From the IMG/VR virus record IMGVR_UViG_3300021185_004515: a stretch of DNA of 64,000 bases. The stretch is one strand, 5' to 3'. Origin of the DNA: an uncultured virus (IMG/VR IMGVR_UViG_3300021185_004515). Lineage: Duplodnaviria; Heunggongvirae; Uroviricota; Caudoviricetes. The position numbers and the translations under genes are program-made. Numbering within the stretch: the first letter of the stretch is position 1; every line of letters begins with the position of its first letter. Under the pieces are notes generated by a model that saw only the letters and a program-made list of their open reading frames with translations, had not been told where the DNA came from and made no database searches. This document shows positions 16,083 through 52,077 of this stretch, piece by piece.

Positions 16083-16700
16083 ATGCGGATGAGCCTAAGA
16101 CAAAAATTTGACGAAATGATGGCCGAAGGTTTGGAGGAAGAAATTCGTAGTGTGGCTGAAACCACTAATATTGTCAATTCTGAATCGGCTCCGATTTTGC
16201 CAGTGATTGCTCAACTACCAGATAGTGAGCCTTTTATTGCAGGAGCGTTTTTATTGGGACAAGATTCTGAGGGCGAAGCAGAATTGCTATTGACGGAACC
16301 AGACGAAACCGACCCAGAAGTCCCCACAGAAAAATTACTGACTTGGTTGAAACAAACTATGTTTATGGAAGGGCTGATGGAATGCGATAGTCCTTGTGAA
16401 TTACTTTTAGATTTCAATATGGCAGTAGTGGCTACGGCTAAGGATTTCACTGATGCCGAATCTTTGGGTTGGGACGCAGTTTTTATGGAAATCAAAAATT
16501 ACGAACGCAGCACCAATCGTCGGGCTCTAAATCAAATCGCAGGAAAAGGACAAATCCAGAATTTGTTGATTGATGTCCTCAAAAGTATGATGAAGGATAT
16601 TTCAAATAATCTGGACGCTTATCTGGAAGAAACAGAAGAAATCTCAATTGAGGAATCTGACCCTGAATGGTCTGATGATTTTAAATCGGAGTGGGCATGA
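16083..16700 (+). CDS. Acidic hypothetical protein
   Basis: TTAAATAGGTA 30 nt upstream. Confidence 0.75.
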   Translation: MRMSLRQKFDEMMAEGLEEEIRSVAETTNIVNSESAPILPVIAQLPDSEPFIAGAFLLGQDSEGEAELLLTEPDETDPEVPTEKLLTWLKQTMFMEGLMECDSPCELLLDFNMAVVATAKDFTDAESLGWDAVFMEIKNYERSTNRRALNQIAGKGQIQNLLIDVLKSMMKDISNNLDAYLEETEEISIEESDPEWSDDFKSEWA

Positions 16701-33526: not shown

Positions 33527-34383
33527 TCTTTGCGCCAGAAATGAAATCCTTCGGGAGTTTCGGGATGACCATCAACCATCTCTACATTTTCAGAACTGAG
33601 CGCAGTTTTTATCTGAGAGTGGTAACGAACTACTCCTGCAATAACCGCTGCCACAGTAGCCAGACCCAATACGCTGACAACTCGCGGGGAAATGGAGCCT
33701 GAACTGTATTCTTCTGCACCCATAGCCGAACCTTCTAAATCTACGATTCCCATATATCCCATTTGACCCAATGCTTCTTGGAAAGCAAACCAATCTGCTC
33801 CTGCATCATTAGATAGAGTAGAACCTCCGTTACCATCTGAAACATTTTTATTCTGTCCTGTTTCTCGGTTAATTGAGTAGGGGTCACAACCTGGGCTGGA
33901 TTGTTGCATAGCCCTGACTACGGTATCAGCATCTGGGAACACCAGAATTCTAACACGGTTGTGAAGAACTCGCTTGCCAGTGTTGTCATCAATTTGTTGG
34001 TGAGGGAACACAATGTATTGCACAATATATTCATCGTTGTCACGACACTTGATAAATTCATCTACAACATCTGTGGAAGAAAAGTATTGACGGCCTGTGT
34101 AAATCTTTCCGTCTTTGAGCGGGTGTCCATGAATAGTCCACTTTCGGTTAGTAAGTCCATCTGTCAAAGCATCTTGGTGAGCCTTGGCTTGAGGATTAAC
34201 CTCAATTCGGGATTCATCTCCGTAAGTGACATTGCCCAAATAGTATTGTCCATTCTTTTCGTAGACATAACACATCCATTCACGCTCTTCGTGCGTTCGG
34301 TCAGAGTATTTTTTCATATCTTTGATAGCATCTTCAGAAAATCTTTCCCATTCAGTCATCCATTTACTCATAATATCAACCAT
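33523..34383 (-). CDS. JAB/MPN-like metallo-domain protein with C-terminal TM
   Basis: EREW...IHGHP...FSSTD (E...HxH...SxxD); TM VVSVLGLATVAAVIAGVV. Confidence 0.65.
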   Translation of the reverse strand: MVDIMSKWMTEWERFSEDAIKDMKKYSDRTHEEREWMCYVYEKNGQYYLGNVTYGDESRIEVNPQAKAHQDALTDGLTNRKWTIHGHPLKDGKIYTGRQYFSSTDVVDEFIKCRDNDEYIVQYIVFPHQQIDDNTGKRVLHNRVRILVFPDADTVVRAMQQSSPGCDPYSINRETGQNKNVSDGNGGSTLSNDAGADWFAFQEALGQMGYMGIVDLEGSAMGAEEYSSGSISPRVVSVLGLATVAAVIAGVVRYHSQIKTALSSENVEMVDGHPETPEGFHFWRKD

Positions 34384-35671
34384 ACCTAATTATTGTGCCG
34401 TCTAAAACCACTGGAGCCACTGTGGACAACAATTCGTTACGAACTGCGTCATCAGCAATTTCCAGACCGATTACTCTTCCTGCGGAAGTGGTGTCACGGG
34501 TCACAGTTACACCTTGAGATTCTAAAATATCTGCTATCTCTGCTAACAGAGATATTGTTCGGCTACCCATAATGGTAATTTCTGCGGCTTCAGCCCAGAT
34601 ACTTCCTGGAGCATCATTCTGTGTCTTGCTTTTTCCTGACTTGACATTGACCCAAACTCTTTCAGAGATTGTGGAATCTACACGAATTGGACGCTTAGAC
34701 AAAACCACTGTGTCCACACGAATTTCGGGAACTACAATAAATTGTTCAGGTGTCAGAGGGGCTCCTGCTAATGTTTTCAAATTTTCTGGGAGTAGAGTAA
34801 TATACCAATCACGGTTTCCAACTCCTGATGGGCGGTCGTTAGTAAATTGAACGGCTCCCGAAACAAATGGGTCACCTCGGATGGTTCCACGAGAACCTAT
34901 TCCAAATCCTGGGGAAACGAAACGATTGTTGATGTGGTCTTCTACATATTCTGAAACCACACGAGTTCGCTCGCCATTTTCCATCAAGAGCCACTGAGAA
35001 TATTCGCCATCAAAATTATCTACCATATAAGTTTGGTCAGTAATAGCAACATCATTAAAAATACTGAGATTAGACTCTAATAAGAAACAATACCATTCTG
35101 ATTTTCGGTCACTGGCATAATTACGAACGGCTTCATTATCATTATCGTCAAAAGTGGTGAGACGAGCAGGTGGGGCGTTGGCTACCACCACAATTCCTGG
35201 AGGCAAATCTACTGAATTACCCTCAGCATCTAAATAATCTGCTAACATAACTTTGGCTCCCACATGAACGGGTGCCATTAACTCGGCCTCAGCACCAAGT
35301 CCTTCATTTTTGACAATAGTAAGATGTTGAGCCCCTGTAAATTCAAAGAAATACCATTGGATATAATCTTGGATAGACATGGTAGGAGTCACACGGATTC
35401 CTTGATAATTGGCTGGGTAACGAAGATTGGCAGGAATATCAAAACCCAATTCAGAGAGATTAACACTTCCACTCAGATTTTCTACGGTAGCCACATCTCC
35501 AGGCTGGGGAGCCATATTTTCCAAAGGGTCTACTCCATTCATAGCATCTTCATAGTTGTCATAGGATTCTTGATAACCTTCGTTGAAAGCAGGTTCCATG
35601 TCAGAGTCTAAGCCTGTGTCTGAAAATGCTGATTCTCGGGCAGGTTGATATTGTCGGACTTCGTAATTCAT
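34376..35671 (-). CDS. Hypothetical protein
   Basis: 431 aa, coupled to its neighbours. Confidence 0.8.
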   Translation of the reverse strand: MNYEVRQYQPARESAFSDTGLDSDMEPAFNEGYQESYDNYEDAMNGVDPLENMAPQPGDVATVENLSGSVNLSELGFDIPANLRYPANYQGIRVTPTMSIQDYIQWYFFEFTGAQHLTIVKNEGLGAEAELMAPVHVGAKVMLADYLDAEGNSVDLPPGIVVVANAPPARLTTFDDNDNEAVRNYASDRKSEWYCFLLESNLSIFNDVAITDQTYMVDNFDGEYSQWLLMENGERTRVVSEYVEDHINNRFVSPGFGIGSRGTIRGDPFVSGAVQFTNDRPSGVGNRDWYITLLPENLKTLAGAPLTPEQFIVVPEIRVDTVVLSKRPIRVDSTISERVWVNVKSGKSKTQNDAPGSIWAEAAEITIMGSRTISLLAEIADILESQGVTVTRDTTSAGRVIGLEIADDAVRNELLSTVAPVVLDGTIIRYG

Positions 35672-38600
35672 CAGTTTTCCCTCCTGGCAGTTGGTGAAGC
35701 GTCAATTGTTTCCCAATCTTCTGGCAAACGACCCAAAACACGAGGGTCAGTAATCAATCCATTTTGTGCAGCCCAAATTTGAGCCAGGTTAGAATTAGTG
35801 AATACCAGAATTTTTCCTGTGGTGTCACGATACCAGCAATCTGATTCGCCTTGCCAGACTGCGGCTAACGAATATTCACGGTTTTTGTATTCTTGGATAG
35901 CACCATTGAGGTCGGATTGAAGTGTTGCTAAATCTTCATTAGAAACACCCCAGTTTCCAGCATTGGACAAAGTTTGTTCAGTTTGCTCCAAAATATATTG
36001 AATTCCTCGGGCATCAGGTTCAAAAGCAGGATTAGCCGATTCCATAGCCCTGATAGCATTACGAACGGCTTCTTCAGCCACGGCCAACATATCTTCGGCT
36101 ACATTCGGATTGTTGGAATCAGCGAATTCACCTGGCATGGTATCACGCTTACGGGCTTCTGCTTCACGAGCAGCCTCACCCATATCACTAAATGGTTCAA
36201 TATTGTCTAATGATTGTTCCCAAGCACCTGCGTCTTCCCATCCTGCCTCAGCAGCCGCATTAACGGCATCTTGAGCCGCAGTAATGGCTAAATCTACGGC
36301 TTGACGGTCAGTAATATCGCCTTCTACGGCCACTTCACGAGCGGATTGTGCGGAAGCAATGGCTTCTACCGCCGACATAGCAGCATCTTGAACATTTTCC
36401 TCTTGAGCAGCCTGTTGTGCATTTTGTGAGGCTTCTACGGCATCATCAGCGAAAATTTCAGACTCGGATTTTCCTTGACCCAATGGCATATCAGCGATTT
36501 CATCACTAACTTCATCCATAATTTCTTGTAGGTCAGGATTTAGTGAAGCCGCAGTTTGCAGAGCCTCTTGAGCCGCAGTTACCGCTCGGTCTACTTCCCG
36601 TTGGTCGGTTTCAGAGGAAGGGTCAGCATTTGCCGCAGCCCTTTTTGCTTCATCAACTGCCTGAACAGCCGATTCCGCCGCAGCGGTTTCATCACCTGCG
36701 TTGCTGGCTCTTTCCGTAGCGTTGGCAGCGGATTGTGCGCCTTGACGAGCCGATTGAGTGTTCTTAGCCTTATCTTCTGTATCTTCATTAGCCTGTTGAA
36801 TTCCTGCATCTGCACCTGCATTACGAGCATTTTCTTGACGAGCCGCATTTGATTCAACACCTTGCTCTTCCAAAAATTGGTTATCTCCGCCTTCGCCATA
36901 ACCCGTAGGAATATCTCTGTCACGAGCCAATTCAGTGTCTTGCCTCATTTGTTCAATAATGTCGTCAATTTGTTGGCGAGCATCATCTCCCGTAGTATCT
37001 TGTAAGTCTTCGGTCTGAGTGTTTTCAGGAACCCAACGATTTTCAGGACCATCGCCTGAATAGGAAATATCGTAAGTGTAAATAATAGTATTGGTTGCAT
37101 TGTCCAACTCATATAGAACATATTCATCACAAATCTGTGTAGTTAATGCTTGAGCAGCAGAGTAGGTTTGAAAATCTGGGAATTCTAAGTAGGCTTCGGC
37201 AGGTGTGGGGCGGAAACTATCAAAGTTAATACCATTAGCCCGCATAACATCCATAATACCTCCAAAAGTGAGGATTTCTTGATTAACCATACCCTCAATC
37301 CACAACATATGTGTCCAGTCAGAACCTATGCGTGTTGGAGAAACTCCGTAAGAGCCACTACCCAGATTTAACCACTGCCACGATTGCTGGCGGTCAAGTT
37401 CAGGATTGTTAGTTGGATTCATAGATGGTTGAGGCCCCACAGGATTATTTCCTGTTTGTGGGACTCCTGTTCCCTCTTCTCCTGATTCTCCTCTTTCTCT
37501 TGCTTCTTCTTCCTCTTTCGCTTTTTTGAGGGCTTCTTTGATTTCTTCAATCAGCCTCTCAATTTCTTCATCGCTCAAATCATCAAATGGTCCAGGTGTG
37601 TCAGAGGGTGTGTCTGAAGGTTCTGGAGGAGTGGAATCATCATCAATAGGCATCGGAGGTTCCATGTTGTCATTAGAAACTTCTTGTTCCCGCTTGTCTT
37701 GCTCCTTTTGCAATTCTTCTAAAATTTCTTCTAAATTACTGGGGCCGTCGGAATCACTCTGCGGACCTCCTGTGGCTTCTCCAGGCAAATCAGGGCCTGG
37801 TTGTGAACCTGGTTCCCCAGAATCTGAGTCACCTTCGCCCTCTCCTTCGCCTTCACCTTGGCCTTCGCCTGAACCTTCACCGCTTCCAGAGCCTTCGCCC
37901 TGTCCGCCAGATTCGCCTTGACCCTCACCAGAACCAGAACCTGAACCACTGCCAGAGCCTTCACCCTGACCAGAACCTGAACCGCTTCCTTGTGATGAGG
38001 TATTACCTCCTGCGCCAGAAGGTCTACCTTGGGGTTTTCCATCTCCATCTCCTTCTCCCTCTCCTTGACCTTGACCTTCGCCTTCACCTTGACCCTGACC
38101 TTGTCCTTGACCCTGACCTTGACCGCTTCCAGAACCTTGACCTTCGCCTTGGCCTTCGCCTTGATTTTCGCCTTCCATTCCTGGTGGGCCTTTGATTTGG
38201 TCGTTAGGGTCGCCTTCTCCTTCGCCTTCACCGCCTTCTCCGTCACCGTCTTCTCCGTCTTCTCCGTCAGTTCCTGTTTGACCTTGACCGCCTCCACCGC
38301 CACGGCCTCCAGAACCACCTTGGGCTCTATTGCCAGCACCAGCACTTCCTGTTCGCACACCGTCTTGGTCGGAACTCGCAGTAAGCACGATGTATTCACC
38401 ATTTTCATCCCAATCCATAGTTTCGGTGTAAATAACTGAGTCATCTGTGAGTGAAAAATAAGGGATATTACTGAGTAATTCTATTAACTGGGCGGGAAGG
38501 TCTTCAAAATATATTCCATCATCAACTTCCATTCCACCGTAGCGCAACAGGGTTAGCAGAGTCATTGGCCCATAATCAGGGTCAGCGACAATAGGGCGGA

Positions 38601-38691
38601 TAGATGGTGATGTAGGAGGAATAGTTACAACTACTTCACCTCCCGTAGAGGTGTTGATACCCAAAACTTGGTCTCCGTCTTGAACAGGCAT
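35671..38691 (-). CDS. Large acidic low-complexity protein (G/E/Q/S tract plus Ala-rich repeats)
   Basis: (GE/GQ/GS)n tract; duplicated AA.SAV.A......AVD.A.TAAQ helical units. Confidence 0.85.
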   Translation of the reverse strand: MPVQDGDQVLGINTSTGGEVVVTIPPTSPSIRPIVADPDYGPMTLLTLLRYGGMEVDDGIYFEDLPAQLIELLSNIPYFSLTDDSVIYTETMDWDENGEYIVLTASSDQDGVRTGSAGAGNRAQGGSGGRGGGGGQGQTGTDGEDGEDGDGEGGEGEGEGDPNDQIKGPPGMEGENQGEGQGEGQGSGSGQGQGQGQGQGQGEGEGQGQGEGEGDGDGKPQGRPSGAGGNTSSQGSGSGSGQGEGSGSGSGSGSGEGQGESGGQGEGSGSGEGSGEGQGEGEGEGEGDSDSGEPGSQPGPDLPGEATGGPQSDSDGPSNLEEILEELQKEQDKREQEVSNDNMEPPMPIDDDSTPPEPSDTPSDTPGPFDDLSDEEIERLIEEIKEALKKAKEEEEARERGESGEEGTGVPQTGNNPVGPQPSMNPTNNPELDRQQSWQWLNLGSGSYGVSPTRIGSDWTHMLWIEGMVNQEILTFGGIMDVMRANGINFDSFRPTPAEAYLEFPDFQTYSAAQALTTQICDEYVLYELDNATNTIIYTYDISYSGDGPENRWVPENTQTEDLQDTTGDDARQQIDDIIEQMRQDTELARDRDIPTGYGEGGDNQFLEEQGVESNAARQENARNAGADAGIQQANEDTEDKAKNTQSARQGAQSAANATERASNAGDETAAAESAVQAVDEAKRAAANADPSSETDQREVDRAVTAAQEALQTAASLNPDLQEIMDEVSDEIADMPLGQGKSESEIFADDAVEASQNAQQAAQEENVQDAAMSAVEAIASAQSAREVAVEGDITDRQAVDLAITAAQDAVNAAAEAGWEDAGAWEQSLDNIEPFSDMGEAAREAEARKRDTMPGEFADSNNPNVAEDMLAVAEEAVRNAIRAMESANPAFEPDARGIQYILEQTEQTLSNAGNWGVSNEDLATLQSDLNGAIQEYKNREYSLAAVWQGESDCWYRDTTGKILVFTNSNLAQIWAAQNGLITDPRVLGRLPEDWETIDASPTARREN
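37830..38330. repeat. Imperfect 6-bp tandem repeats encoding Gly-X
   Basis: CCTTCG/CCTTGA/CCCTGA/CCAGAA runs. Confidence 0.85.
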
Positions 38692-38716
38692 ACTAATTAT
38701 AACCCCTACTTGCTAT

Positions 38717-38872
38717 TTAAGATTGTTGGTGGTAAAATTCCCAATCAGGGGCGGGAGATGGGCAAGCACATAAAAACCTGACTCGTTGCAAGCCTTCTGA
38801 ATTTAATTCTGGAGTCCCAACTAAACGACCCAGTAAGCCACAAACACAAGTCCATTCCAACCTTTTAATCAT
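38717..38872 (-). CDS. Small Cys protein (51 aa)
   Basis: Hand-translated MIKRLEWTCVCG...LCACP; GGTGA SD. Confidence 0.6.
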   Translation of the reverse strand: MIKRLEWTCVCGLLGRLVGTPELNSEGLQRVRFLCACPSPAPDWEFYHQQS

Positions 38873-38880
38873 GGTATCAC

Positions 38881-40881
38881 CTATGAACTCAATTCACGGT
38901 TGAGCCATTTTCTTTCAATGAACTGCACATCTCCGTTTTCATCAGTCCAGGTAGCATACCAATAGAAATCATAATGTGTGGTATTGTTTGAAGTAAAATT
39001 GGTCAAAGAAAGTGAATTATTATCATATTCCCAACCTTGAACATAATTTAGCGTAGTGTCCCAAACAAGCGGTTGGTCGGTGTTATTAGATGAATTTATA
39101 TCATAGACTAAGAATTGAACGGAAACATTGTAACCCTCAAGTTCATTTTCTTGATACCCGCAATCTAAATCATAAGCGACGGTTGCATGGGTTGAGTTCG
39201 TTTGAAGCATTATGTAATAAAGGTTGATTTCACACGCTTCGGGTTCGGGTGCTACGACATCAATTCCCCAGAAATTAACCTGTTCTAATTGGTTGCCATC
39301 GTGCGTGATTGTAATCATAGGAATCCAAGAGTTACCCACAGCCACACCATCAAAAATGTGAGATACATCAACCTCATTGTCACCACTTACCATGGTTTCC
39401 CAAGTATAATTAGCCGCATATCCGTTTTGGAATAAATCAATTTCTACCAAGATAGTTTCGTCTTCACAGTTTTCTGGAACTAACTTAAATGCCACTACGA
39501 TAGCATCCTGTTCCTCATCTTCGGCTATGTGGCCTCGGTAATGATTATGTATTTCTACCTCACAAGGTTCCGCAGGAGGATATTCGCAAGAACCGTCATC
39601 GTCAGTAGCCTCTGGACTAAAATTAGTGGCTTCTGAATCAGTGCATCCCCAGATTTTTTCAGGTTCAATAGAAATGGTGTGAGCAATCCATTTTTCATCT
39701 AATACCTCTCCGTTAAGTCTCAACACAATTTTGGGCTCATAGTTTCCGTCCTCAACTCCATCCCAAGTATGAGTGGTGTAATCTGCACCATCGGGGTCAG
39801 TAACTTTACCATCTTCAAAAGTCTGGTGTTCATATTTTACCACACTGTCTTGATACAATGCCCAAGTGATTTCAAATTGTTCGTCATCACAATTCTCGGC
39901 TTCGTCTACCAAGTCTACATCAGCACTGATTCTAACAGCGTCTTGTTCGGAATCAGACTCTAATAAGTAGGCTTGTTCGTTGATAAGATACGCATCACAC
40001 TCTTCGGGCTCATCCTGTGATTCAATATAATATACTTGACTCGTCGGTAAGTAGTATTCATCGCCGTGTTCACAAGAGCCGTCTTCACACTCTACTACAT
40101 GGAACTCTACTCGGTAATGGTAAGTGCCTTCGGCTAAATCTTCAAAAGTATATTCCATGCTAATACCATTAACGAAATCTATGTTGCGGATAAATACTTG
40201 GTCTTGTTGGCCTCCGTCTTCAAACAAAGTGATAATGAAGTGTCCTCCAAAATGCTCTATGTCGCACTCAGAATTGTCTTGGAAAGCGAACCTTACTTCT
40301 AAATTGCTTCCATCAATATATCCATATTCATCATAATACCATTGTGAATTACAGGGGGGATTTTCCCAGTAACAAGAACCATCTTCAACCTCTGCGTCTG
40401 GATTAAAATTATCAGCATCAAAAGCCATACAACCCCAGATTTCTTCGCCTGAACTGCCTTGAGCATCATCGCCCATAAAATAATCTATCCCTACACCTCC
40501 TGTGAGTAACAGCAAAATTGGGGCTACTACGGCTAAAATAACTTTGATTTTCTCTGCTTTTCTCTGCACTGATTCCAAAGCCCTGTCTACAATATCTCCT
40601 TCCAAAGTTGTCTCCACGGCAACCTCAGTTTTATTGACCCCTCCATTGAGAACTGTGTTGTCAGAAACTTGTTGATTGATTTGCTGCACTGTGGAAATTA
40701 ACTCTGCGGCTTCTTTGAGTTGCTCCACTAATGACTCAGATTTTTCTTCATTGGAAAGATTGACTATACCATCATCCAGCAAGTCTTCTAAAACAGATTC
40801 CTTGGTGCGTCCTGTGGCCTCGGCAATAACCTGCGCTCGCTCATCCAATTCTAAGTGAATATCCATATCATCTTCAGACAT
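38881..40881 (-). CDS. Membrane-anchored acidic surface protein with GCxD...DGSC repeats
   Basis: TM VILAVVAPILLLLTGGVGI; WGCMAFDADNFNPDAEVEDGSC and WGCTDSEATNFSPEATDDDGSC; repeated Cys-flanked beta domains. Confidence 0.85.
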   Translation of the reverse strand: MSEDDMDIHLELDERAQVIAEATGRTKESVLEDLLDDGIVNLSNEEKSESLVEQLKEAAELISTVQQINQQVSDNTVLNGGVNKTEVAVETTLEGDIVDRALESVQRKAEKIKVILAVVAPILLLLTGGVGIDYFMGDDAQGSSGEEIWGCMAFDADNFNPDAEVEDGSCYWENPPCNSQWYYDEYGYIDGSNLEVRFAFQDNSECDIEHFGGHFIITLFEDGGQQDQVFIRNIDFVNGISMEYTFEDLAEGTYHYRVEFHVVECEDGSCEHGDEYYLPTSQVYYIESQDEPEECDAYLINEQAYLLESDSEQDAVRISADVDLVDEAENCDDEQFEITWALYQDSVVKYEHQTFEDGKVTDPDGADYTTHTWDGVEDGNYEPKIVLRLNGEVLDEKWIAHTISIEPEKIWGCTDSEATNFSPEATDDDGSCEYPPAEPCEVEIHNHYRGHIAEDEEQDAIVVAFKLVPENCEDETILVEIDLFQNGYAANYTWETMVSGDNEVDVSHIFDGVAVGNSWIPMITITHDGNQLEQVNFWGIDVVAPEPEACEINLYYIMLQTNSTHATVAYDLDCGYQENELEGYNVSVQFLVYDINSSNNTDQPLVWDTTLNYVQGWEYDNNSLSLTNFTSNNTTHYDFYWYATWTDENGDVQFIERKWLNRELSS

Positions 40882-44465: not shown

Positions 44466-44873
44466 ATGGAACAAGAAATTATGATTGCTGCTGGTGCTGT
44501 GGGTGTCGTCCTTGCTGGCGCAGCCGCTCGCTGGTGGAATAAAAACCGAAACAAGATTGCAGACAAGATTGAAGATACTTTGGAAGATGCAATAGAAGAC
44601 CTGACTGGAAAAGATGTAGAACTTGGCGAAATCGTTGATGAAGTCATGGAATCTGCTGATGAAGTCGTTGAAGAAACTGTGGAAGCAGTAGAATCTGGCG
44701 AAGATGTCGTGGAATCTGTCAAAGAATCCGTTGCAGAAGAGGTTGAGGAACTAAAGGAAGATTTGTCTGCTCTTACTGTGGCACAACTCAAACTACGGCT
44801 CAAGGAAGCAGGATTGCCTGTTTCGGGAACCAAACTCACACTTATCAACCGACTTTCGGAGATGGTAGAATGA
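44466..44873 (+). CDS. Membrane-anchored SAP-domain protein
   Basis: N-terminal TM, acidic linker, LSALTVAQLKLRLKEAGLPVSGTKLTLINRL. Confidence 0.85.
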   Translation: MEQEIMIAAGAVGVVLAGAAARWWNKNRNKIADKIEDTLEDAIEDLTGKDVELGEIVDEVMESADEVVEETVEAVESGEDVVESVKESVAEEVEELKEDLSALTVAQLKLRLKEAGLPVSGTKLTLINRLSEMVE

Positions 44874-45064: not shown

Positions 45065-48000
45065 ATGGCTGACTTCTACTCCATTCCGTTGGAGGAAATG
45101 GATGCGTTCTTGCGTTCCAGAAGGTTTCAACCTGTTGATTTAACCTATCGTAACCGCCCTGTGATGGAATGGGTCTATGAAAGACCTTTGCCTCGGCAAC
45201 CGAATCATTTTGTGAGAGTCTATACTGGAATCAACCGTTATGGTCGTTCACAGAATCAAAGTCGTGGTGCGGGAAAAGACGCTATCCGTGTGCAAGTTAT
45301 TTACAAAAGCGGTGATGTGGAAACATTAGTGACTCAACCCAAGCGTGTGCATCGGGTCACAGGATGGGCAGATAATCTGGACAACAGGCTATCAGAAATC
45401 GCCCAATCGTTACCACAGGTGGTATTTGACCGTCGTGGAGAACCCATGACTTTGAGGCGTAAGAATGGTAAGTATTTCTGGGGCAGTAGAGATTATCCTC
45501 GCTACAAAGAAACCCGTCCTTTTCAAGCAGAAGAATTTAATGGTGAAATGGAGGAATACGCCTATGGTGATGTTGATGATGGTTTTACCTCAATGTCTAA
45601 TCTGGCTCACATCTCTTTGCCCGATTACGAAGAATCTTATTATTGGACTTCCGTAGATGGGAACTCAAGGGCTACTGTGGCTTATGATGAAGATAATGAA
45701 GTCATCATTATCCCTAACTTTGAAGTATCGTTGCGTGTGCGGGGCAAGAAAATGGCTCACAAATACTTAGAAGAAATTATTGATGATACTTACCGAGATG
45801 GATATTCTGTGCAAGTCACAGATGTTGATAATCATGCTATCGGTTTTTGGGAAAAGATGCAAAGTCAAGGTTTGATTGAGAGTTGGACGCAGGGAAGTTT
45901 CGCTGCTGAGGGTGCGCCATTATCGGGACAAACTACGGAAGCACCCTATGAAATTAAGGTGTATGTTCCCTCTACTACCTTAGACCAACCCATTAGTGCC
46001 AGCGATTTCAAATCTCGTATTGATGAAACTCAAGAAAAACTCTCAGAATTGTTCGGAGGATTTACTACTGTTGATGCTTCAGGAGGATATTTGAGTCAGC
46101 AAGATGGTGTGATTAGTGAACCCGTTATTGTGGTATCATCGTGGGCTACTGAGGAAGATTACCAATCAAAATTGGGCGATTTAGAACGCTTCTTGAAACA
46201 AAAGAAAGATGATTGGGGCCAGGAAGTCATTGGATTTGAGTTTGAAAATGATTTCTTTATGTATCCTGCTTTTGAAGCCGAAGATGAAATTCCCATTATT
46301 GACCTTAACTCAAAAAAAGAAATTGAAGAATATGGGTTGTTTAAACCATACGAACCAAATCCCTGGCACAGAGAGGAATGGAGGCGTAAATCATTAACTG
46401 ATGCACCCGAAAACAGCAATCTATTTCGCATCAATTGTGATGGTGTGTATGCAGTAAGAACCATTTATGGACCTTCTAAAATAATTTTTGGAAGGAATAT
46501 GTTGGCTTCTAATAAAGTATCTTTCAATCGTGCCGAACAGCGAAATCTATCAGGGGTGTGGGGGCTAATGGGATTGCCCAGAGATAATAGTGGAGTAGTA
46601 AGTGCATTTGGGCCTCTTGAAAACATAGAGAAAATGCCTCAATTCTCGGAGAGACCAGCAATCTACCTCTTAAATAAAAAGGAACTGATTCCTAACAGAA
46701 TTGTTATCAATATGAAGGGGCTGGTTTTTGCTTACGACATCGTGCATCGTGAGGTTGAATTTTATGGTGGAGTGCCACAGTCAAGCATTGTATCAGAAGA
46801 CATCCCTCCTGAATGGGTCAATCCGCAGGAGATTAGCAAACCTCTTTTCGCTGCGGAAGATGATTATGACTCTACTTATGGAGTGGAACAAGCCAAGATT
46901 CGCAGAAGATTAAAGAATAAAATTAAGAAACAAGCCATCATGGGAACCAAGGCGGGTCAATGGTCGGCTCGTAAGTCCCAAGAATTGAAACGACAATACG
47001 AGGCTGCTTGTGATAAAAAAGGTTTGAATTCATACAAGGGTAAGAAAACTAAATCGCAAGATAATCTCAGTAAATGGAGCAAACAAAAGTGGGGAACGGC
47101 TTCAGGAAAGAAGTCATCTACTACTGGCGAACCATATTTCCCTGCCAAAGCAGTTGCGGCACTCAAAGACAAAGGATTATACTCCAAAGCCAAGCAACAA
47201 AAGAAAGCCGCTACCAAGGCAGGAAAGCAAAACGCTCGTTACAGTGACGACATTCGTGCCGTAGTCAAAAACTATCGCTCTGAAACATATGAGGAAGCAA
47301 CAGGCGTAGAATTTTCTGAACAAAACCCTGAAAAGATTGAGGCAGACGCTCCACCCGATTGGAGGGAATCTATCATTACCATTCCACAATCAGATTCTTT
47401 TGGCTATGCTTTGTATCGCAAAATGTCAGACTTAACCTATAATCAGGTATGGAGGGTATTGGAAATTATTGATGACCTAAATCGTATGAGTCATCACCAT
47501 GCTCTAACCAGATTTAGTAGCAACTATGTAGAAATTTGGATTTACAGCCATGATAGCGGATTGGTTATGCCGAAAGATTATCATTGGGCCGAAGATTTTA
47601 ATGACATGATTGCTACGGTGGACTGGCAAATGTGGGAGTCCGAAACCGAATGGGAAGAGGTTGATTGGGAAAAAGAAAAACCAGCGAAAGACCAAAATGA
47701 CTGGGGCGATGATGTAGAGTGGGAGGCTGAAGATGACTGGGGTTCGTTGCGTCCAGAAACTCGCCCAGAATTTCCAACCGTTGATGCTAAAATTGCCTCT
47801 ATGCTGCGAAACCACTCCAAAGTTAATGTCAATGGTGAACAAGGATGTCCTCGCTGTGGACAAGAAGATTTATTCTATCGTGAATCCACAGGAACGGGGA
47901 CCAAATGGTATTGTTATGGGTGCTTCTATACTGAAAAGACAGAATCTCAGAAAAGTCAAAAGATAATCACTTTAGAAAAATATGGTCTGAAGGTTCGGTG

Positions 48001-48082
48001 TCCCGATTGTGATGAAATGATTGTGGCTTATAATCAAGCCTCACTCAATAGCCACCGTAAAAAATGTGGGGTGACTAAGTGA
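45065..48082 (+). CDS. Mosaic polyprotein with about seven unrelated modules joined by xAE/xSE junctions
   Basis: GNAT-like, DUF3574-like, DUF5872-like (GQWSARKSQ), PCD-like (HH...YSHD) and Zn-ribbon modules. Confidence 0.9.
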   Translation: MADFYSIPLEEMDAFLRSRRFQPVDLTYRNRPVMEWVYERPLPRQPNHFVRVYTGINRYGRSQNQSRGAGKDAIRVQVIYKSGDVETLVTQPKRVHRVTGWADNLDNRLSEIAQSLPQVVFDRRGEPMTLRRKNGKYFWGSRDYPRYKETRPFQAEEFNGEMEEYAYGDVDDGFTSMSNLAHISLPDYEESYYWTSVDGNSRATVAYDEDNEVIIIPNFEVSLRVRGKKMAHKYLEEIIDDTYRDGYSVQVTDVDNHAIGFWEKMQSQGLIESWTQGSFAAEGAPLSGQTTEAPYEIKVYVPSTTLDQPISASDFKSRIDETQEKLSELFGGFTTVDASGGYLSQQDGVISEPVIVVSSWATEEDYQSKLGDLERFLKQKKDDWGQEVIGFEFENDFFMYPAFEAEDEIPIIDLNSKKEIEEYGLFKPYEPNPWHREEWRRKSLTDAPENSNLFRINCDGVYAVRTIYGPSKIIFGRNMLASNKVSFNRAEQRNLSGVWGLMGLPRDNSGVVSAFGPLENIEKMPQFSERPAIYLLNKKELIPNRIVINMKGLVFAYDIVHREVEFYGGVPQSSIVSEDIPPEWVNPQEISKPLFAAEDDYDSTYGVEQAKIRRRLKNKIKKQAIMGTKAGQWSARKSQELKRQYEAACDKKGLNSYKGKKTKSQDNLSKWSKQKWGTASGKKSSTTGEPYFPAKAVAALKDKGLYSKAKQQKKAATKAGKQNARYSDDIRAVVKNYRSETYEEATGVEFSEQNPEKIEADAPPDWRESIITIPQSDSFGYALYRKMSDLTYNQVWRVLEIIDDLNRMSHHHALTRFSSNYVEIWIYSHDSGLVMPKDYHWAEDFNDMIATVDWQMWESETEWEEVDWEKEKPAKDQNDWGDDVEWEAEDDWGSLRPETRPEFPTVDAKIASMLRNHSKVNVNGEQGCPRCGQEDLFYRESTGTGTKWYCYGCFYTEKTESQKSQKIITLEKYGLKVRCPDCDEMIVAYNQASLNSHRKKCGVTK

Positions 48083-48513
48083 ATATCATAAATTGGATTA
48101 GAAAACCCGCATTACTATGGACTTTTTCACGAAGTTACCCGAACCTTGGTAGGGATTTTTTTTATGCTCCATCTCGTGAACACGCCCAAGCAGAAATTAT
48201 ACATCTTATGAGAATGAATCATGGTGATGACATAGGTGAATTGAGGTGGGAGCCTTTTGAAAGCGATGGACTCATTACTATGTTGAGTGAATATGATGGT
48301 AATAAATTGGTTGAGGGTTCGTGGGGCTACTTAAAATTAGTAAGTAGTGATGTTAAAACTTTAAAAGAAATAATTGATGATTCTGTGCAACTCTCAGAGG
48401 CGGAGTTGGAAGCAAAACAAAAAAGAGTTGAAGCCTACATGAAAAAACTAACTGGTGGTGGTGGCTATTGGGACCCGCAAACTTATACCGACGATTATCA
48501 ACCCTATGAATAG
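48079..48513 (+). CDS. Hypothetical protein with N-terminal IINW
   Basis: MNIINWIRKP; GGGGTGA SD. Confidence 0.7.
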   Translation: MNIINWIRKPALLWTFSRSYPNLGRDFFYAPSREHAQAEIIHLMRMNHGDDIGELRWEPFESDGLITMLSEYDGNKLVEGSWGYLKLVSSDVKTLKEIIDDSVQLSEAELEAKQKRVEAYMKKLTGGGGYWDPQTYTDDYQPYE

Positions 48514-48549
48514 AGATTAGTTAAATAGGTGATGCAACTACTAAAAGGC

Positions 48550-51500
48550 ATGACTCAGTGGACGCATGATGAATACATATCTCGTCTAAACGCTGACGCT
48601 GATGCTGCATACCTAATCGCTGATGCTGCCCGAGCCAAAGGATATGACCCACGAATCACAGTGGAAATACCTCAAGCGTTTGATTTGGCAGACCGATGCC
48701 AGAAATTACTGGAATTTTTACACCCTCGTAGAACTGCTGAACAGATTCGTGCGCTAACCGAATCACACGATGGAAACCGTGAAATGGTGGCTCTGGATAT
48801 TGCTAAAATCGTTACTGCGGAATCATGGTTGTATGGTATCAAAAATAAATGTGATTCTTGCGGTGGAGAAAAAGTCGTCAAAAAGGGAAGACGAACTGTG
48901 AGTTGTGATACTTGCGATGGAACTGGGATGATTCTGAACTACTCCGAAGATATTGAATTAGACTATGAAGAAACTCTGCAAAAATTCTCTGATAATGAGC
49001 GAATCATCAAAGACGACACTTTCGGAGCATTGTGTATCTATCATGGAGTGTGTGCAGGATTAGCAGTATTGACTGAAGGAATCTTAGTGGCTCCCTTAGA
49101 AGGTGTGGTATCGTGTCGTATTGTCATGAATGAAGACCGTAGCAAATCATTAGCCATCAACTTTGCAGGGCCTATCCGAAGTGCAGGTGGCACAGGTCAA
49201 GCCTTGTCGGTGCTGATTGGTGATATTATCCGTCGTGAGTTCGGGTTAGTCCCTCCTAAGATTACTTTTGAAGAGGCTGAACGATACAAAGAAGAAGTCA
49301 GTAAATATGCTCGTGGCCTACAATACCGACCTTCCAATCCACAATTGGAGATTATTGCTTACAACTGTCCTGTGTATATTGATGGTGAAGGTGTAGGTAA
49401 TGAAGTCTCAGGTCAGCGTGATTTACCTCGTGTTCCAACCAACAAAGTCCGAGAAGGGATGCTGCTGGTTATGTGTGAGGGTTTGGTATTGAAGGCTCCC
49501 AAGATTTTGAAATACACGGAAGCATTGGGATTCAAAGAATGGGATTGGCTAAAGCAATTTACCAGCAAGGGAGATTCGGATGCTAAGAAAGCATCTATTG
49601 AACCTAACTACAAATTCTTGGCCGATATTTTAGCAGGTCGTCCTATCTTTTCTCGCCCAATGGCTCGTGGTGGTTTCCGACTACGATATGGCCGTAGTAG
49701 ATTGGCAGGATTAGCCACTACTGCTATCCATCCAGCCTCTATGAGAGCCGTAGGTAGTTTCCTCATTGTTGGGACTCAAATGAAATATGAGCGTCCTGGA
49801 AAAGCCACTGTGGTAACTCCTTGCGATTCTATTGAAGGGCCATATGTAGAATTTACCGATGGTTCGGCTCGTCGCATACAAGAAATGGATGATTTGGAAG
49901 ATGCAGTCCCGACGGAAGAAGAATGGAATATTGCTCGTGTTTGGGATTTGGGAGAAATTCTGGTTCCTGTGGGTGAGTTCTTGGAAAATAACCATCCGTT
50001 AGCACCCAGCCCTTATGTTCACGAATGGCACGAGTTAGTTGTAAGTAAAGAAGAACTTACTTATCCAGAAACATTTTCTGAAGCATTAAATCAGTCCCAG
50101 AAATTTAATATCCCGATGGCTCCTGAGTATATTGCTCATTATAGTGACTTGCTTCCTGAAGAATTGCAGACTCTGTTGCAAGGTATGACAATCACTGATG
50201 GTCTGGCGCAAGTGGAGCCAGATGTATTAGAAATCATTTATCGGCTCAACATTGATGTTGATGTTAATCGGTGTTTATCTGGGGACAAATCGGAGTTACT
50301 TTTGAATCTCTGGAATTCAAAATCTCAATTGGATTTTAATTCTGACTCGGACGGTTCAGCATTGGGAGTTATCCGAAACTTTTACAATTTTCCAATTGAA
50401 AATCCTATTTCTATCCGTATCGGCGGGCGAATGGGAAAACCCGAAGGAAGCAAACTACGAGAAATGAAACCTCCGATTCATTGCAACTTCCCTGTGGGCT
50501 TCAATGTGGGTAGTCAAAGACTACTAAGAACTGCGGCTGACCAGCAAGAAGATGTAGAAACTGGGTGGCGTATGTGTGATGTTTGTGAGGAAGCAACTAT
50601 CTGGGGTGTTTGTTGTGGAGCCGAAACTCGTTTCGTCGGATTGAAGTGGGATAAGGTTGGAATTAAAGATTTGTATGAGTCGGCCTTGGAATCTGCGGCG
50701 ATTGCTGATGGAAAAATCAAAGGTGTAAAAGGAATCACCAGTTCGGAGAAAATCCCTGAGCATCCTCTCAAGGGTGTGTTAAGATACAAGCATGGAATTT
50801 CTATGTTCCGAGATGGAACAATTCGTTTTGACATGGTGGACATTACCATGACTCACTTCCGACCCAGAGAAATTGGGATGACAGTGGAACAAGCGCAAGA
50901 ATTAGGATATGACTGTTTAACTCTGGACGATGTTTTAGAGTTGAGACCACAAGATGTGGTGTTGCCTCAGAATTGCTCAGAGAAAATTCTGGCTACGGCA
51001 AATTATATGGATGACTTGTTAGGCTCTATGTATGAATTAGAGCCCTATTACAATTGTGATACGGTTAATGACTTGATTGGACATTATGTGATGGGTATTG
51101 CCCCTCACACCAGCGGAGCAATCTTGGCACGAATTATTGGGTTTGCTGATGTGAAAGGACATTATGGACATCATTATTATCACGCAGCCAAACGCCGTAA
51201 TTGTGATGGAGACATTGACGCAGTATTATTGTTGCTGGATGGATTGATTAACTTTAGTAAAAAATTCTTGCCAGGACACCGAGGCGGGCAAATGGATGCT
51301 CCCTTGATTTTAACTACCAAGATTGTGCCGTCCGAAATTGATAAGGAAGCCTTGAATGTAGAGATTGTAGACCACTATCCGTTGGAGTTCTATGAATTAA
51401 CTCAAGGCATTGAAGATGAAGACGGAGATTTGGTCCCACCACCTGCTAAAGCAGCCATAGCCGCAGGAGTAACCATTGTGGAGTCGGTGTTAGGCACAGA

Positions 51501-52077
51501 CTTGCAGTATGTCGGCCAGAAATTTACTCACGACACACGAGATTGCAGCGAAGGGCCAGCCAACAACCCTTACAACACTCTGGACTCTATGCGACAGAAA
51601 ACCATGGCTCAATTTGCTTTAGGAGATTGCTTGCAATCAGTAGATAATAAAGAACAGTCCTCCCGATTGATTCAACGACACTTGATTCGGGATATGAGGG
51701 GTAATCTCAGAGCCTATGGGCAACAAAAAGTCCGTTGTCCTAAGTGCGGTGGTAAATACCGTCGTCCACCTATTTCGGGTCGCTGTATGACTATTCTGGA
51801 AACTAAACAGAATCCATTTTCGGGCGAAACTGAGCAGATTTATTGTGATGGTAAAATTATTCTGACGGTGACGCATGGTTCAGTGGCTAAGTATGATAAA
51901 CTCATGGCTGAATTAGTGAATCGCTACGGGGCTGATGATTATACCGCAGGATTGTATGAGCAAGTTAGTCGCTGGGTAAAAGATACCTTTGAAGATAAAA
52001 ATATTCTGAGTCAATCAAAATTACCATTACCTGAGAGCGATTCATCCGAAGGTTCAAATAGCAGCAAAACCAAATAA
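48550..52077 (+). CDS. polC: DNA polymerase D large subunit (DP2)
   Basis: ARAKGYDP, LAVLTEG..VAPLEG, FAGPIRSAGGT, GGFRLRYGRSR, IGGRMGKPE, DGTIRFD, HAAKRRNCDGD, GGQMDAPL, C-terminal Zn finger; start set 29 nt after the promoter. Confidence 0.97.
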   Translation: MTQWTHDEYISRLNADADAAYLIADAARAKGYDPRITVEIPQAFDLADRCQKLLEFLHPRRTAEQIRALTESHDGNREMVALDIAKIVTAESWLYGIKNKCDSCGGEKVVKKGRRTVSCDTCDGTGMILNYSEDIELDYEETLQKFSDNERIIKDDTFGALCIYHGVCAGLAVLTEGILVAPLEGVVSCRIVMNEDRSKSLAINFAGPIRSAGGTGQALSVLIGDIIRREFGLVPPKITFEEAERYKEEVSKYARGLQYRPSNPQLEIIAYNCPVYIDGEGVGNEVSGQRDLPRVPTNKVREGMLLVMCEGLVLKAPKILKYTEALGFKEWDWLKQFTSKGDSDAKKASIEPNYKFLADILAGRPIFSRPMARGGFRLRYGRSRLAGLATTAIHPASMRAVGSFLIVGTQMKYERPGKATVVTPCDSIEGPYVEFTDGSARRIQEMDDLEDAVPTEEEWNIARVWDLGEILVPVGEFLENNHPLAPSPYVHEWHELVVSKEELTYPETFSEALNQSQKFNIPMAPEYIAHYSDLLPEELQTLLQGMTITDGLAQVEPDVLEIIYRLNIDVDVNRCLSGDKSELLLNLWNSKSQLDFNSDSDGSALGVIRNFYNFPIENPISIRIGGRMGKPEGSKLREMKPPIHCNFPVGFNVGSQRLLRTAADQQEDVETGWRMCDVCEEATIWGVCCGAETRFVGLKWDKVGIKDLYESALESAAIADGKIKGVKGITSSEKIPEHPLKGVLRYKHGISMFRDGTIRFDMVDITMTHFRPREIGMTVEQAQELGYDCLTLDDVLELRPQDVVLPQNCSEKILATANYMDDLLGSMYELEPYYNCDTVNDLIGHYVMGIAPHTSGAILARIIGFADVKGHYGHHYYHAAKRRNCDGDIDAVLLLLDGLINFSKKFLPGHRGGQMDAPLILTTKIVPSEIDKEALNVEIVDHYPLEFYELTQGIEDEDGDLVPPPAKAAIAAGVTIVESVLGTDLQYVGQKFTHDTRDCSEGPANNPYNTLDSMRQKTMAQFALGDCLQSVDNKEQSSRLIQRHLIRDMRGNLRAYGQQKVRCPKCGGKYRRPPISGRCMTILETKQNPFSGETEQIYCDGKIILTVTHGSVAKYDKLMAELVNRYGADDYTAGLYEQVSRWVKDTFEDKNILSQSKLPLPESDSSEGSNSSKTK

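Follow-up and report, generated by a model that had tools for sequence, protein, structure and literature searches.

Cutting of polyproteins is characteristic of RNA viruses and also occurs as a hallmark in a few DNA viruses of eukaryotes. In positive-strand RNA viruses, 3C-like proteases act at sites with Glu or Gln at P1, a hydrophobic P4 and a small residue close by, and the chymotrypsin-fold protease is embedded in the polyprotein. ASFV pp220 and pp62 are cut at Gly-Gly-X and poxvirus core precursors at Ala-Gly-X by virus-coded cysteine proteases of the Ulp1/adenain type, with structural core products in a fixed order. In the T4 gp21/phiKZ gp175-type motifs of phages, P3 is occupied by a residue that is small or hydrophobic (A-X-E; L/I-X-E).

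The closest known concept to the 1005-aa protein described here is that of the polyvalent proteins of phages, for which we know of no defined cut code. Polyvalent proteins, which conjugative elements encode as well as phages, join two to 15 unrelated domains per polypeptide in very variable architectures (Iyer, Burroughs, Anand, de Souza, Aravind 2017, PMC5512222). In the parts of that paper drawn on here, proteolytic release of the domains by an embedded zincin-like MPTase is proposed, many polyvalent phage proteins are described as delivered uncut, and no common junction peptide is mentioned (PMC5512222). The protein analyzed here, encoded in a 64-kb window (the whole stretch of DNA that was analyzed) from a marine element that is uncultured and resembles archaeal viruses, is like them in combining 7-8 unrelated modules in one ORF and in its variability, since 108 architectures built from 114 module clusters were counted in 122 proteins (120 listed of 173 near-length relatives from public metagenomes, plus two window ORFs). 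Unlike polyvalent proteins, it has a fixed four-residue code at each joint, a different domain vocabulary (Cu-Zn SOD, PolX, NUDIX, PCD, DUF5872, GNAT and Zn ribbons in the family) and an archaeal-type context (PolD, TFIIB); neither an MPTase/zincin nor the typical polyvalent set (ParB, ArdC-N, methylases etc.) was found by Pfam in the ORF and 57 homologues.

According to the parts of a paper on prohead proteases used here, these enzymes mostly strip N-terminal propeptides off structural or ejection proteins, their substrates carry multiple motifs, the protease removes its own C-terminal part, and the A-X-E motif after which SPN3US gp245 cleaves places Ala at P3 (PMC10052503). The comparison to T4 and phiKZ made in the preliminary description thus holds for Glu at P1 and fails for the rest of the site, since here Ala stands at P2, a hydrophobic residue at P4 and P3 is free. 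In addition, prohead proteases, as portrayed in those parts, do not separate a chain of enzymes, and no assemblin-type protease was recognized in the window. With ASFV and poxviruses the locus shares a dsDNA virus precursor with a short repeated motif, at which cutting is putative here, whereas cassette shuffling is absent in ASFV and poxviruses. The features of the site are like those of 3C-like protease sites, but no chymotrypsin-fold protease was detected here and those enzymes belong to another virus class (RNA). Our survey of the archaeal-virus literature (magrovirus, PolD/TFIIB and dsDNA scope, with few subscription journals) found no description of such a polyprotein system; the portions of the magrovirus literature reached by term search name PolB, and not PolD or polyprotein. 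We propose that the 1005-aa ORF encodes a putative polyprotein cut after hydrophobic-x-Ala-Glu, the likeliest of the readings weighed here, which we nevertheless judge to be evenly balanced between right and wrong.

Modules of the 1005-aa protein

The 1005-aa protein is a mosaic of unrelated modules (Table 1), as had been claimed from its sequence. Its frame is open and shows no indels or joints except one cassette deletion (see below), so an alternative genetic code, frameshift or splicing is not needed to read it.

Table 1. Features of the mosaic protein, other motif-rich ORFs and neighboring genes in the window (residue in brackets, first residue of the motif).
Feature	Coordinates	Strand	Remarks
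1005-aa mosaic ORF, putative polyprotein	45065..48082	+	ATG start, table 11 frame open
Module 1, aa 1-156	45065..45532	+	N-terminal alpha/beta domain and Cys-less Topo-type ribbon; ends FQAE 45521-45532 (aa 153)
Module 2, aa 157-282, GNAT-like	45533..45910	+	ends FAAE 45899-45910 (aa 279)
Module 3, aa 283-406, phrog_31027/3543-like	45911..46282	+	ends FEAE 46271-46282 (aa 403)
Module 4, aa 407-598, weak ART-like leads	46283..46858	+	ends FAAE 46847-46858 (aa 595)
Module 5, aa 599-740, basic DUF5872	46859..47284	+	ends YRSE 47273-47284 (aa 737)
Module 6, aa 741-860, PCD/DCoH-like	47285..47644	+	ends WESE 47633-47644 (aa 857)
Acidic Trp-rich spacer, aa 861-889	47645..47731	+	ends WEAE 47720-47731 (aa 886)
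C-terminal module, aa 890-1005, two zinc ribbons	47732..48079	+	no terminal motif
Second motif-rich ORF, 413 aa	5665..6906	+	Zn-ribbon mini-modules between FEAE, WASE, FGAE, FDAE, FAAE
Third motif-rich ORF, 734 aa	7051..9255	+	PolX, then modules ending MDAE, MNAE-D-MNAE, FDAE-T-FEAE, FAAE
Candidate junction protease (lead), 286 aa	33523..34383	-	JAB/JAMM-like pattern: E35 (EREW 34276-34287), HGHP (34120-34131), SSTD (34069-34080); C-terminal part: MGAE (33712-33723) before membrane anchor, hydrophobic helix (33628-33681), tail
SAP-domain protein	44466..44873	+	conserved neighbor upstream
144-aa ORF	48079..48513	+	conserved downstream; start overlaps stop of 1005-aa ORF
PolD large subunit DP2	48529..52077	+	marks replication module; E=9e-110 and others

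Module 1 is the constant head of the lineage, followed by 29 different modules among the 120 relatives listed; its AF2 model (pLDDT 83.7) gave no significant fold match. The Cys-less topoisomerase ribbon previously assigned to it is backed by P0195, a stand-alone homologue with a Cys4 ribbon (PF01396, precomputed) at the equivalent place. Module 5, a 142-aa unit found in 58 of the 122 proteins, scores 27.9 bits with DUF5872 when scanned alone (cut-off 27.5) and matches phrog_14910 at E=3e-12. Module 6 is predicted to be PCD-like from both its fold and its profile match: Foldseek finds DCoH/PCD with probability 1.00 (TMt 0.65-0.82, E about 1e-3), and Pterin_4a scores 23.7 bits (cut-off 26) in the module and 38.6 bits in its homologue P0014. 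Support for the module names of the preliminary description is uneven, and the profile matches of the GNAT-like module (Acetyltransf_CG, E=3.6e-5, 24.3 bits, cut-off 30) and of the C-terminal zinc ribbons (DUF7838, 28.2 bits, cut-off 28.5) fall below their cut-offs. For module 3, DUF3574 reaches E=0.095 and PHROGs 31027 and 3543 match at E=5e-6 and 2.5e-5, and module 4, previously called ART-like, has no Pfam match over residues 407-598 and weak language-model (ESM) leads to Arr-ms and PARP clusters (score 0.80). The spacer region (pLDDT <50 across aa 858-901) is of a 29-33-aa type (cluster 9) that recurs among the relatives listed, and the cluster of the last module (cluster 2) occupies the C-terminus in 28 of its 35 occurrences among those relatives and the window ORFs.

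The joint motif and module exchange

The seven copies of [FWY]-x-[AS]-E in the 1005-aa protein lie exactly where they had been placed, and far exceed the mean of 1.43 in post hoc shuffles of the same protein (seven reached in 10 of 20,000). By the same test, F.AE occurs four times against a mean of 0.21 (four or more in 2 of 20,000), and seven scrambled or neighboring control motifs occur 0-3 times each. The 68 window ORFs hold 26 matches to [FWY]x[AS]E, 17 of them within 5665-6906, 7051-9255 and 45065-48082, the three polyproteins of the preliminary description; for [FWY]xAE, 13 of 17 window matches fall in these ORFs, which make up 2152 of 19,402 aa (binomial 6e-10, likewise post hoc). Across 81 related sequences (1099 ORFs) the enrichment is about 10-fold, with 224 motifs in 53 such ORFs (45,935 aa) versus about 21 expected by composition. 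The hydrophobic position is usually Phe, Tyr or Trp and sometimes Leu or Met.

Domain boundaries coincide with the motif, as the modular reading had predicted. In the AlphaFold model, all seven motifs fall within, or border on, stretches that lack secondary structure and have pLDDT <50; such stretches amount to 40% of the protein. Among the 120 listed homologues, the right ends of internal BLAST HSPs peak at offsets 0 (3232) and +1 (2783) from Glu, and 15,196 of 33,702 internal endpoints lie no more than 10 aa from a motif versus 2,752 at random positions, although these counts are redundant over related proteins. The same redundancy applies to breakpoint pile-ups called without use of the motif, of which 370 of 592 lie beside [FWYLMIV]x[AS]E versus 66 at random; the other 222 have no motif nearby, and most of those inspected resemble decay of similarity within a module.

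Among close relatives, modules have been exchanged, reordered, acquired or dropped, with the changes falling exactly at the motif. For example, P0007 is 100% identical to the 1005-aa protein over aa 597-1005 and 99% over 279-406, with different cassettes in between; P0004 has modules 2 and 3 in swapped order, with HSP ends at 156, 282 and 406/407; module 4 is exchanged for other cassettes in both; and P0149 is without module 2. Module 2 is also absent from one viral-metagenome contig, in which a joint 45540>45904 skips 45541-45903 (weak, with a side of 28 nt) and lies between two motif copies, and loose contig ends occur at 46852 and 46886, around the end of module 4. A contig scan with an N-module profile gave 24 pattern matches and no relatives. 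Among the 122 proteins, the motif joins 201 distinct module pairs and ends 83 upstream module clusters, and PolX-bearing relatives among those listed have modules in common with the 1005-aa ORF.

These breaks could be read as giving the motif no biochemical role, that is, as a recombination scar, what is left of a cassette 3' end, or a neutral linker that each module brings along. The sharp end of homology at Glu, which indicates that module and motif travel together, and the deletion joint between two motif copies are consistent with this, as is the codon usage at the joints, where GCA is overused for Ala (47% versus 25% background; GCC 24%, GCT 20%, GCG 9%) and GCA-GAA is over-represented. 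Nevertheless, a stretch of twelve degenerate bases in which every Ala codon and either Phe codon is used cannot direct recombination, only 2 bases are shared at the observed joint, and A155 and E156 are invariant in an alignment of 23 orthologous module-1 joints while P3 is free to vary. Since 83 unrelated upstream modules among the 122 proteins end in the same peptide, selection on the peptide is needed, and we regard a motif with no role as improbable. The use of all four Ala codons at joints, already noted for the window, likewise points to selection on the peptide. Together, the sequence evidence points to selection acting mainly at the peptide level; given the overuse of GCA, there may be a minor DNA- or codon-pair-level effect at the joint Ala.

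A peptide under selection could also be a binding site in a fusion that stays uncut, in which the motifs and the acidic residues that follow them dock one partner, such as a replication-factory hub, a chaperone, or a capsid or portal protein. The joint motifs do sit in disordered acidic linkers, typical of binding motifs, and tandem copies at single joints (FDAE-T-FEAE, MNAE-D-MNAE, WDAE-x-FAAE) would raise avidity, although tandem copies also resemble the multiple cut motifs described for phage propeptides in the portions of PMC10052503 used here. Full-length delivery of several polyvalent phage and plasmid proteins, as presented in the parts of PMC5512222 cited above, and the placement of the gene among replication genes fit a docking role as well. 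However, where three of these modules are encoded as separate proteins the motif is missing: the GNAT-like genes P0187 and P0189 end in '...WTQGRTL', DUF5872 proteins terminate where the motif would stand, and N-module homologues terminate right after the ribbon. The motif is thus not a tag that each enzyme needs when alone. In addition, the C-terminal module carries none, the strict position past the native end of each complete protein suits a separator better than a docking site, and no docking partner was identified. We consider an uncut fusion possible but rather unlikely.

If the protein is instead cut, each cassette would consist of a complete small protein that stands alone elsewhere (DUF5872, GNAT-like, N-terminal ribbon) plus a linker ending in hydrophobic-x-Ala-Glu. 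A dedicated endopeptidase would read the four-residue code and cut after Glu, freeing the modules as separate proteins. Expression would be supplied by the constant N-terminal module and a fixed genomic slot, and passenger cassettes would be gained, lost, permuted and exchanged among genomes, with survival only for joints in which the code is preserved. A simple, testable four-residue code marks the joints over hundreds of natural architectures. This code permits annotation of domain boundaries, and hence of small unknown proteins by the dozen, in uncultured viruses that abound in the ocean. In the family, nature has also shuffled modules in frame, and the resulting library with its portable separator may be useful for protein engineering.

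A candidate junction protease

The best candidate for a junction protease is the JAB/JAMM-like protein of 286 aa (Table 1), an assignment that is more doubtful than probable. It contains an E...HxH...SxxD residue pattern like that of the JAB/MPN+ (JAMM) superfamily, and E30, H80, H82, S97 and D100 (alignment numbering) are invariant in 10 family members whose identity falls as low as 27%. HxH and S are at least 14 residues apart versus a canonical JAMM spacing of 7, and JAMM peptidases are known to cut after Gly-Gly, not Glu. The gene is syntenic in 23 loci and the window. The M-G-A-E that precedes the membrane anchor, of which G217-A218 are kept by 90% or more of the 10 sequences in the alignment, may parallel the self-trimming of prohead proteases in the portions of PMC10052503 used here.

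The JAB assignment falls under every curated threshold. DUF4329 matches five of nine family members (best E=0.0095, sub-cut-off, the window copy not among them), the profile score of P0203 is E=0.014, and a Toxin-JAB1 cluster in the ESM Atlas scores 0.78 for the candidate. DUF4329 corresponds to Tox-JAB-2, with the signature 'E, H[ST]H, S, D', in the part of Zhang et al. 2012 used here, which also proposes that nuclease, and not peptidase, activity may be what Tox-JAB domains have (PMC3482391). The family profile gave no matches against PDB sequences and PHROGs gave nothing at E<=0.03, and an hhalign comparison with lambda K aligned HGHP to HSHP with a probability of 0.6%. A complex prediction for aa 1-215 with the joint segment 575-620 scored 0.01 (mark 0.32), which speaks neither for nor against binding.

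An embedded protease cassette was rejected. In a Pfam scan of the ORF and 57 diverse homologues, the sole peptidase match was a weak PPPDE/Peptidase_C97 in one of the 57, too rare to serve the family; PF05903 was precomputed on one further homologue.

A broader picture, which we offer tentatively and think more likely wrong than right, is that dsDNA viruses of marine archaea, in one widespread lineage, express auxiliary enzymes (SOD, PolX, NUDIX, PCD, acetyltransferase, possible ADP-ribosyltransferase) from shuffled cassette polyproteins, with hydrophobic-x-Ala-Glu as punctuation read by a dedicated virus-coded protease, perhaps a membrane-anchored one of JAB/JAMM type that frees itself at the same code. 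If other lineages use joint codes of their own, such punctuation would be a general way for archaeal viruses to express genes, comparable to that of RNA viruses.

Genomic setting and distribution

The enzyme could also lie elsewhere: cutting might be done by a host (archaeal) protease or a virion prohead protease coded outside the window, with the JAB-like protein unrelated to processing. T4-type and jumbo-phage prohead proteases do cut after Glu, including SPN3US gp245 at A-X-E in the portions of PMC10052503 used here, the window covers 64 kb whereas the genome measures 148 kb or more (the cluster of the identical protein includes a 147,697-base contig), and near-identical DNA occurs in a viral-fraction metagenome. 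The register differs, however, with Ala at P2 and not P3, and the gene lies outside any recognizable structural module. Pfam, PHROGs and NCBIfam revealed no recognizable capsid, portal, terminase or prohead protease in the 64-kb window, and the S21/S77(U9)/S78(U35)/C57-type protease that the preliminary description had suggested seeking was not found there with the same libraries; the protease, capsid and terminase searches covered the window and loci up to about 20 kb. We regard an outside protease as unlikely.

In all loci with enough flank, the 1005-aa gene is part of the replication module, with a helicase/HTH/SAP block on one side and PolD DP2 on the other. This placement gives no support to packaging of the products in the virion, which had been raised as a possibility. 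Most window ORFs are without a family, archaeal-type replication genes are present, and large neighbors of 1020, 1006, 666 and 431 aa gave nothing meaningful against PDB sequences. For one protein of the window, 75-86% of the ESM neighbors are viral. Three metatranscriptome runs contain contigs that span 45065-46208 and 47601-48082 of the gene, which is no proof of its transcription, just as gaps in RNA-library contigs prove nothing. Finally, the element is common, with near-identical DNA in 14 DNA runs spread over at least 12 studies.

Occurrence of the joint motif in the 1005-aa protein and related loci

The 1005-aa ORF (45065-48082, plus strand) starts with ATG and contains seven copies of the joint motif [FWY]-x-[AS]-E, each exactly at the nucleotide position given in the preliminary description. 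F.AE occurs four times against a shuffle mean of 0.21 (a level reached in 2 of 20,000 shuffles) and [FWY].[AS]E seven times against 1.43 (10 of 20,000), and seven control motifs made of the same or neighbouring letters have 0-3 copies each. This agrees with the enrichment over shuffled background anticipated earlier; since the shuffle tests are post hoc, we gave more weight to the independent data from homologues. Across a greedily chosen set of 68 window ORFs that do not overlap and are 80 aa or longer, 17 of 26 [FWY]x[AS]E matches are concentrated in three ORFs (5665-6906, 7051-9255 and 45065-48082), as are 13 of 17 [FWY]xAE matches, in 2152 of 19,402 residues (binomial 6e-10), supporting the earlier mention of three polyproteins.

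Beyond the window, 117 relatives of the N-terminal module (N-module, residues 1-156) turned up in metagenomes, from which 80 loci carrying such relatives were fetched (contigs up to 174 kb), and no relatives of this module were found in the species-genome collection. Among the 1099 ORFs of the window and these loci, the 53 with at least three motifs have 224 copies over 45,935 aa, compared with about 21 expected from composition, and the remaining ORFs hold 179 versus 130 expected. At most of 388 sites, Glu is followed by D (143), E (89), S, T, G or N. Leu and Met are also seen at the first position: LGAE ends a 33-aa Zn-ribbon mini-module, and MNAE and MDAE occur in the window PolX protein (7051-9255). 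Two small plus-strand window ORFs carry a junction-like motif near the stop, '...GFLAESEE' in 14264-14566 and '...DFKSEWA' in 16083-16700; these could be additional substrates or matches arising by chance.

Module identities and module boundaries

A Pfam scan of the whole 1005-aa ORF gave sub-threshold matches only, and a PHROG scan gave four matches, all to function-unknown families. When the modules were scanned singly after cutting at the motifs, DUF5872 passed its cut-off (27.9 vs 27.5 bits), DUF7838 (Zn ribbon) fell just under it (28.2 vs 28.5 bits), Pterin_4a and Acetyltransf_CG scored 23.7 and 24.3 bits, DUF3574 reached just E=0.095, and residues 407-598 had no match. Foldseek with the full-length AlphaFold model returned DCoH/PCD structures (probability 1.00, TMt 0.65-0.82, E ~1e-3), confirming the PCD-like fold. 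The module names first proposed stand for DUF5872 and PCD and are weaker for the sub-threshold Zn ribbon, GNAT and DUF3574; the ART-like label of residues 407-598 is still a guess because the only leads come from ESM Atlas (unnamed viral clusters at 0.83-0.84, Arr-ms and PARP-bearing clusters at 0.80).

The AlphaFold model of the whole protein has a mean pLDDT of 58 and a pTM of 0.27, as expected of a predicted beads-on-a-string protein. Stretches with pLDDT below 50 comprise 143-186, 193-295, 387-409, 583-601, 739-752, 858-901 and shorter ones. As had been proposed for domain boundaries, five of the seven motifs lie entirely within these stretches and the other two (737 and 857) end in them, and the residue after Glu (P1') is of low confidence at all seven, with the caveat that 193-295 spans most of module 2, which is simply poorly predicted. 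In this model, the motif marks structural boundaries.

A collection of 5.8 billion proteins contained 173 near-length relatives, and we analyzed the best 120. Most of these are 60-100% identical to the query over just ~15-40% of its length, and their other domains (precomputed or fresh Pfam) include Cu-Zn SOD, PolX, NUDIX, PCD, GNAT, Zn fingers and, rarely, a PPPDE peptidase; 117 of the 120 contain [FWY]xAE at least once. In an all-against-all BLAST of this set, 15,196 of 33,702 internal endpoints fell within 10 aa of a motif versus 2,752 at random positions, with 3232 internal right ends on the Glu and 2783 one residue later, and [FWYLMIV]x[AS]E adjoined 370 of 592 motif-blind breakpoint pile-ups versus 66 at random positions, counts in which related proteins recur and events are not independent. 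Judging from 40 that were inspected, the 222 pile-ups lacking a motif mostly reflect similarity fading within modules. Cutting 122 proteins (these 120 and two window ORFs) at the motif produced 501 segments in 114 clusters, with 108 distinct architectures, 201 distinct module pairs joined by the motif, 83 distinct upstream modules ending in it and 29 different modules succeeding the N-terminal one. In an alignment of 23 N-modules, A155 and E156 are invariant, 153 is F or Y and 154 is free (Q, R, A, G, V or S), and directly after E156 the sequences are wholly unrelated. By these sequence comparisons, the motif marks evolutionary boundaries.

A neutral scar of module joining, as an alternative account of the motif, is unlikely given this invariance of A and E together with codon usage. 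The 13 sites in the window itself draw on all four Ala codons, and at the 224 motifs in motif-rich ORFs of relatives the Ala codons are GCA 47%, GCC 24%, GCT 20% and GCG 9%, compared with 25%, 24%, 38% and 13%, respectively, as background in the same proteins; motif Glu is GAA in 88% (77% background) and both Phe codons are used. The use of all four Ala and both Phe codons indicates that selection acts on the peptide, bearing out the preliminary description. The roughly twofold excess of GCA at the motif may be due to shared ancestry of sites or to codon-pair bias.

Homologues also display the anticipated swapping of modules at the motif. In the metagenome relative P0007, identity to the query is 100% for aa 597-1005 and 99% for aa 279-406, with different cassettes in between; P0004 has modules 2 and 3 in reversed order and no module 4, is 95-98% identical in the shared parts, and its alignments end at 156, 282 and 406/407; in P0149 the N-module is fused directly to module 3. 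Judging from these alignments, the swaps are recent and precise. One contig of a run labelled viral metagenome omits 45541-45903 (363 nt, roughly module 2), a weak hint since the shorter side of the joint is 28 nt and the depth 2.7; in further contigs the sequence departs from the window upstream of 46852 and 46886, which is at the FAAE joint.

Comparison with free-standing homologues indicates that the motif belongs to the joints rather than to the modules. GNAT-like genes standing alone (P0187 and P0189, on 4 and 5 contigs) end in '...WTQGRTL' or '...WTQGRIL' where the query reads '...WTQGSFAAE', in viral contigs seven DUF5872 homologues that stand alone end at the YR[AS]E position with the motif absent, and free-standing N-module homologues stop soon after the ribbon. 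The final module of a chain is likewise without the motif.

Putative processing and a candidate enzyme

Dozens of unrelated proteins carry the four-residue peptide behind their native C-terminus, and solely where another module follows, so the data call for one common reader of it. The simplest would be a site-specific endopeptidase, with cleavage putatively after Glu, a view with which the tandem sites and the acidic residues at P1' are consistent. The main rival is an uncut polyvalent protein in which the repeated motif serves for docking. Polyvalent proteins of phages and plasmids, for which release by proteolysis has already been proposed, carry many enzymes per chain (PMC5512222), and maturation proteases directed at Glu are familiar from T4-like and jumbo phages (PMC10052503). 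New here are an explicit junction code across a whole lineage, the extreme degree to which cassettes, each a complete small protein, are shuffled at this code, and the archaeal-virus-like setting.

Looking for other conserved proteins with the junction motif yielded a 286-aa protein with an invariant E...W-T-I-H-G-H-P...(14 residues)...S-S-T-D, after which come D-x-E-G and x-G-A-E. The window copy has M-G-A-E as this last element, which is frequently doubled in relatives (e.g., 'MGAESYNAE') and precedes a hydrophobic helix with a short tail. When 1.84 billion representative sequences were scanned in full with HMMER, just 54 relatives came up, mainly fragments. In a 10-sequence alignment including members at 27-37% identity, E30, H80, H82, S97 and D100 are invariant and G217-A218 are present in at least 90%. 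The E...HxH...S...D arrangement is the JAB/JAMM residue pattern, the Tox-JAB-2 signature being 'E, H[ST]H, S, D', which Zhang et al. (2012) equated with Pfam DUF4329 (PMC3482391). DUF4329 matches five of nine family members below cut-off (best E=0.0095), the window copy itself being unmatched, and ESM Atlas ranks unnamed viral clusters first (0.92-0.95) and a Toxin-JAB1 cluster at 0.78. Against a role as JAB peptidase, searching PDB sequences with a profile of this family gave no hit, hhalign aligned HGHP on HSHP of lambda K with a probability of 0.6%, and JAMM peptidases are known to cut after Gly-Gly. Also against it, toxin JABs were suggested to be possible nucleases (Zhang et al. 2012; PMC3482391). 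On balance the 286-aa protein is somewhat more probably a JAB-fold metalloenzyme than something else; that it is the junction protease is doubtful.

Genomic setting

Features of the window
Feature	Position	Strand	Remarks
FQAE	aa 153		1005-aa ORF
FAAE	aa 279		1005-aa ORF
FEAE	aa 403		1005-aa ORF
FAAE	aa 595		1005-aa ORF
YRSE	aa 737		1005-aa ORF
WESE	aa 857		1005-aa ORF
WEAE	aa 886		1005-aa ORF
TFIIB homologue	19106-20047	+	TFIIB repeat E=1.8e-42; phrog_20431 E=1e-55; conserved in related loci
JAB/JAMM-like 286-aa protein	33523-34383	-	at 23 loci besides the window, in each case close to the polyprotein gene
Operon-like block of four conserved proteins (666, 1006, 431, 286 aa)	33523-40881	-	666-, 1006- and 431-aa proteins in 8-21 related loci
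SAP-domain protein	44466-44873	+	conserved in related loci
144-aa ORF	48079-48513	+	GTG start overlaps polyprotein stop codon; conserved in 21 loci
PolD large subunit DP2, full-length	48529-52077	+	Pfam E down to 9e-110

The putative polyprotein gene is preceded by genes for an MCM-lid-like helicase, an HTH protein and the SAP-domain protein and followed by the 144-aa ORF and PolD DP2, an order preserved in every main-lineage locus that reaches far enough. The overlap of the 144-aa ORF, which has no family match, with the polyprotein suggests possible translational coupling. Besides TFIIB and PolX, the window encodes a Holliday-junction-resolvase-like nuclease, an ATP-dependent ligase, an XPD-like helicase, PP2C and a PriS-like protein; the majority of its ORFs have no database match, and the four proteins of the operon-like block match no family or PDB sequence. 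The 64-kb window shows no recognisable capsid, portal, terminase or maturation protease, and no recognisable DP1 small subunit of PolD; DP2 stands in an element whose other ORFs are mainly orphans.

DNA nearly identical to the 1005-aa ORF is present in 14 DNA runs, which come from 12 or more studies and include one labelled viral metagenome, and a contig of 147,697 bases is represented in the protein's 90% cluster. The window thus belongs to a common marine element that carries archaeal-type replication genes and is probably a virus. Excerpts of magrovirus descriptions give PolB, not PolD, and mention no polyprotein. Some related metagenome loci have the polyprotein region divided into two or three consecutive ORFs, for example three in L013 (10001-13018) and two genes in L028 (10001-12464), the first with a hydrophobic C-terminal module at its end; these could be genuine split genes, assembly errors or decay.
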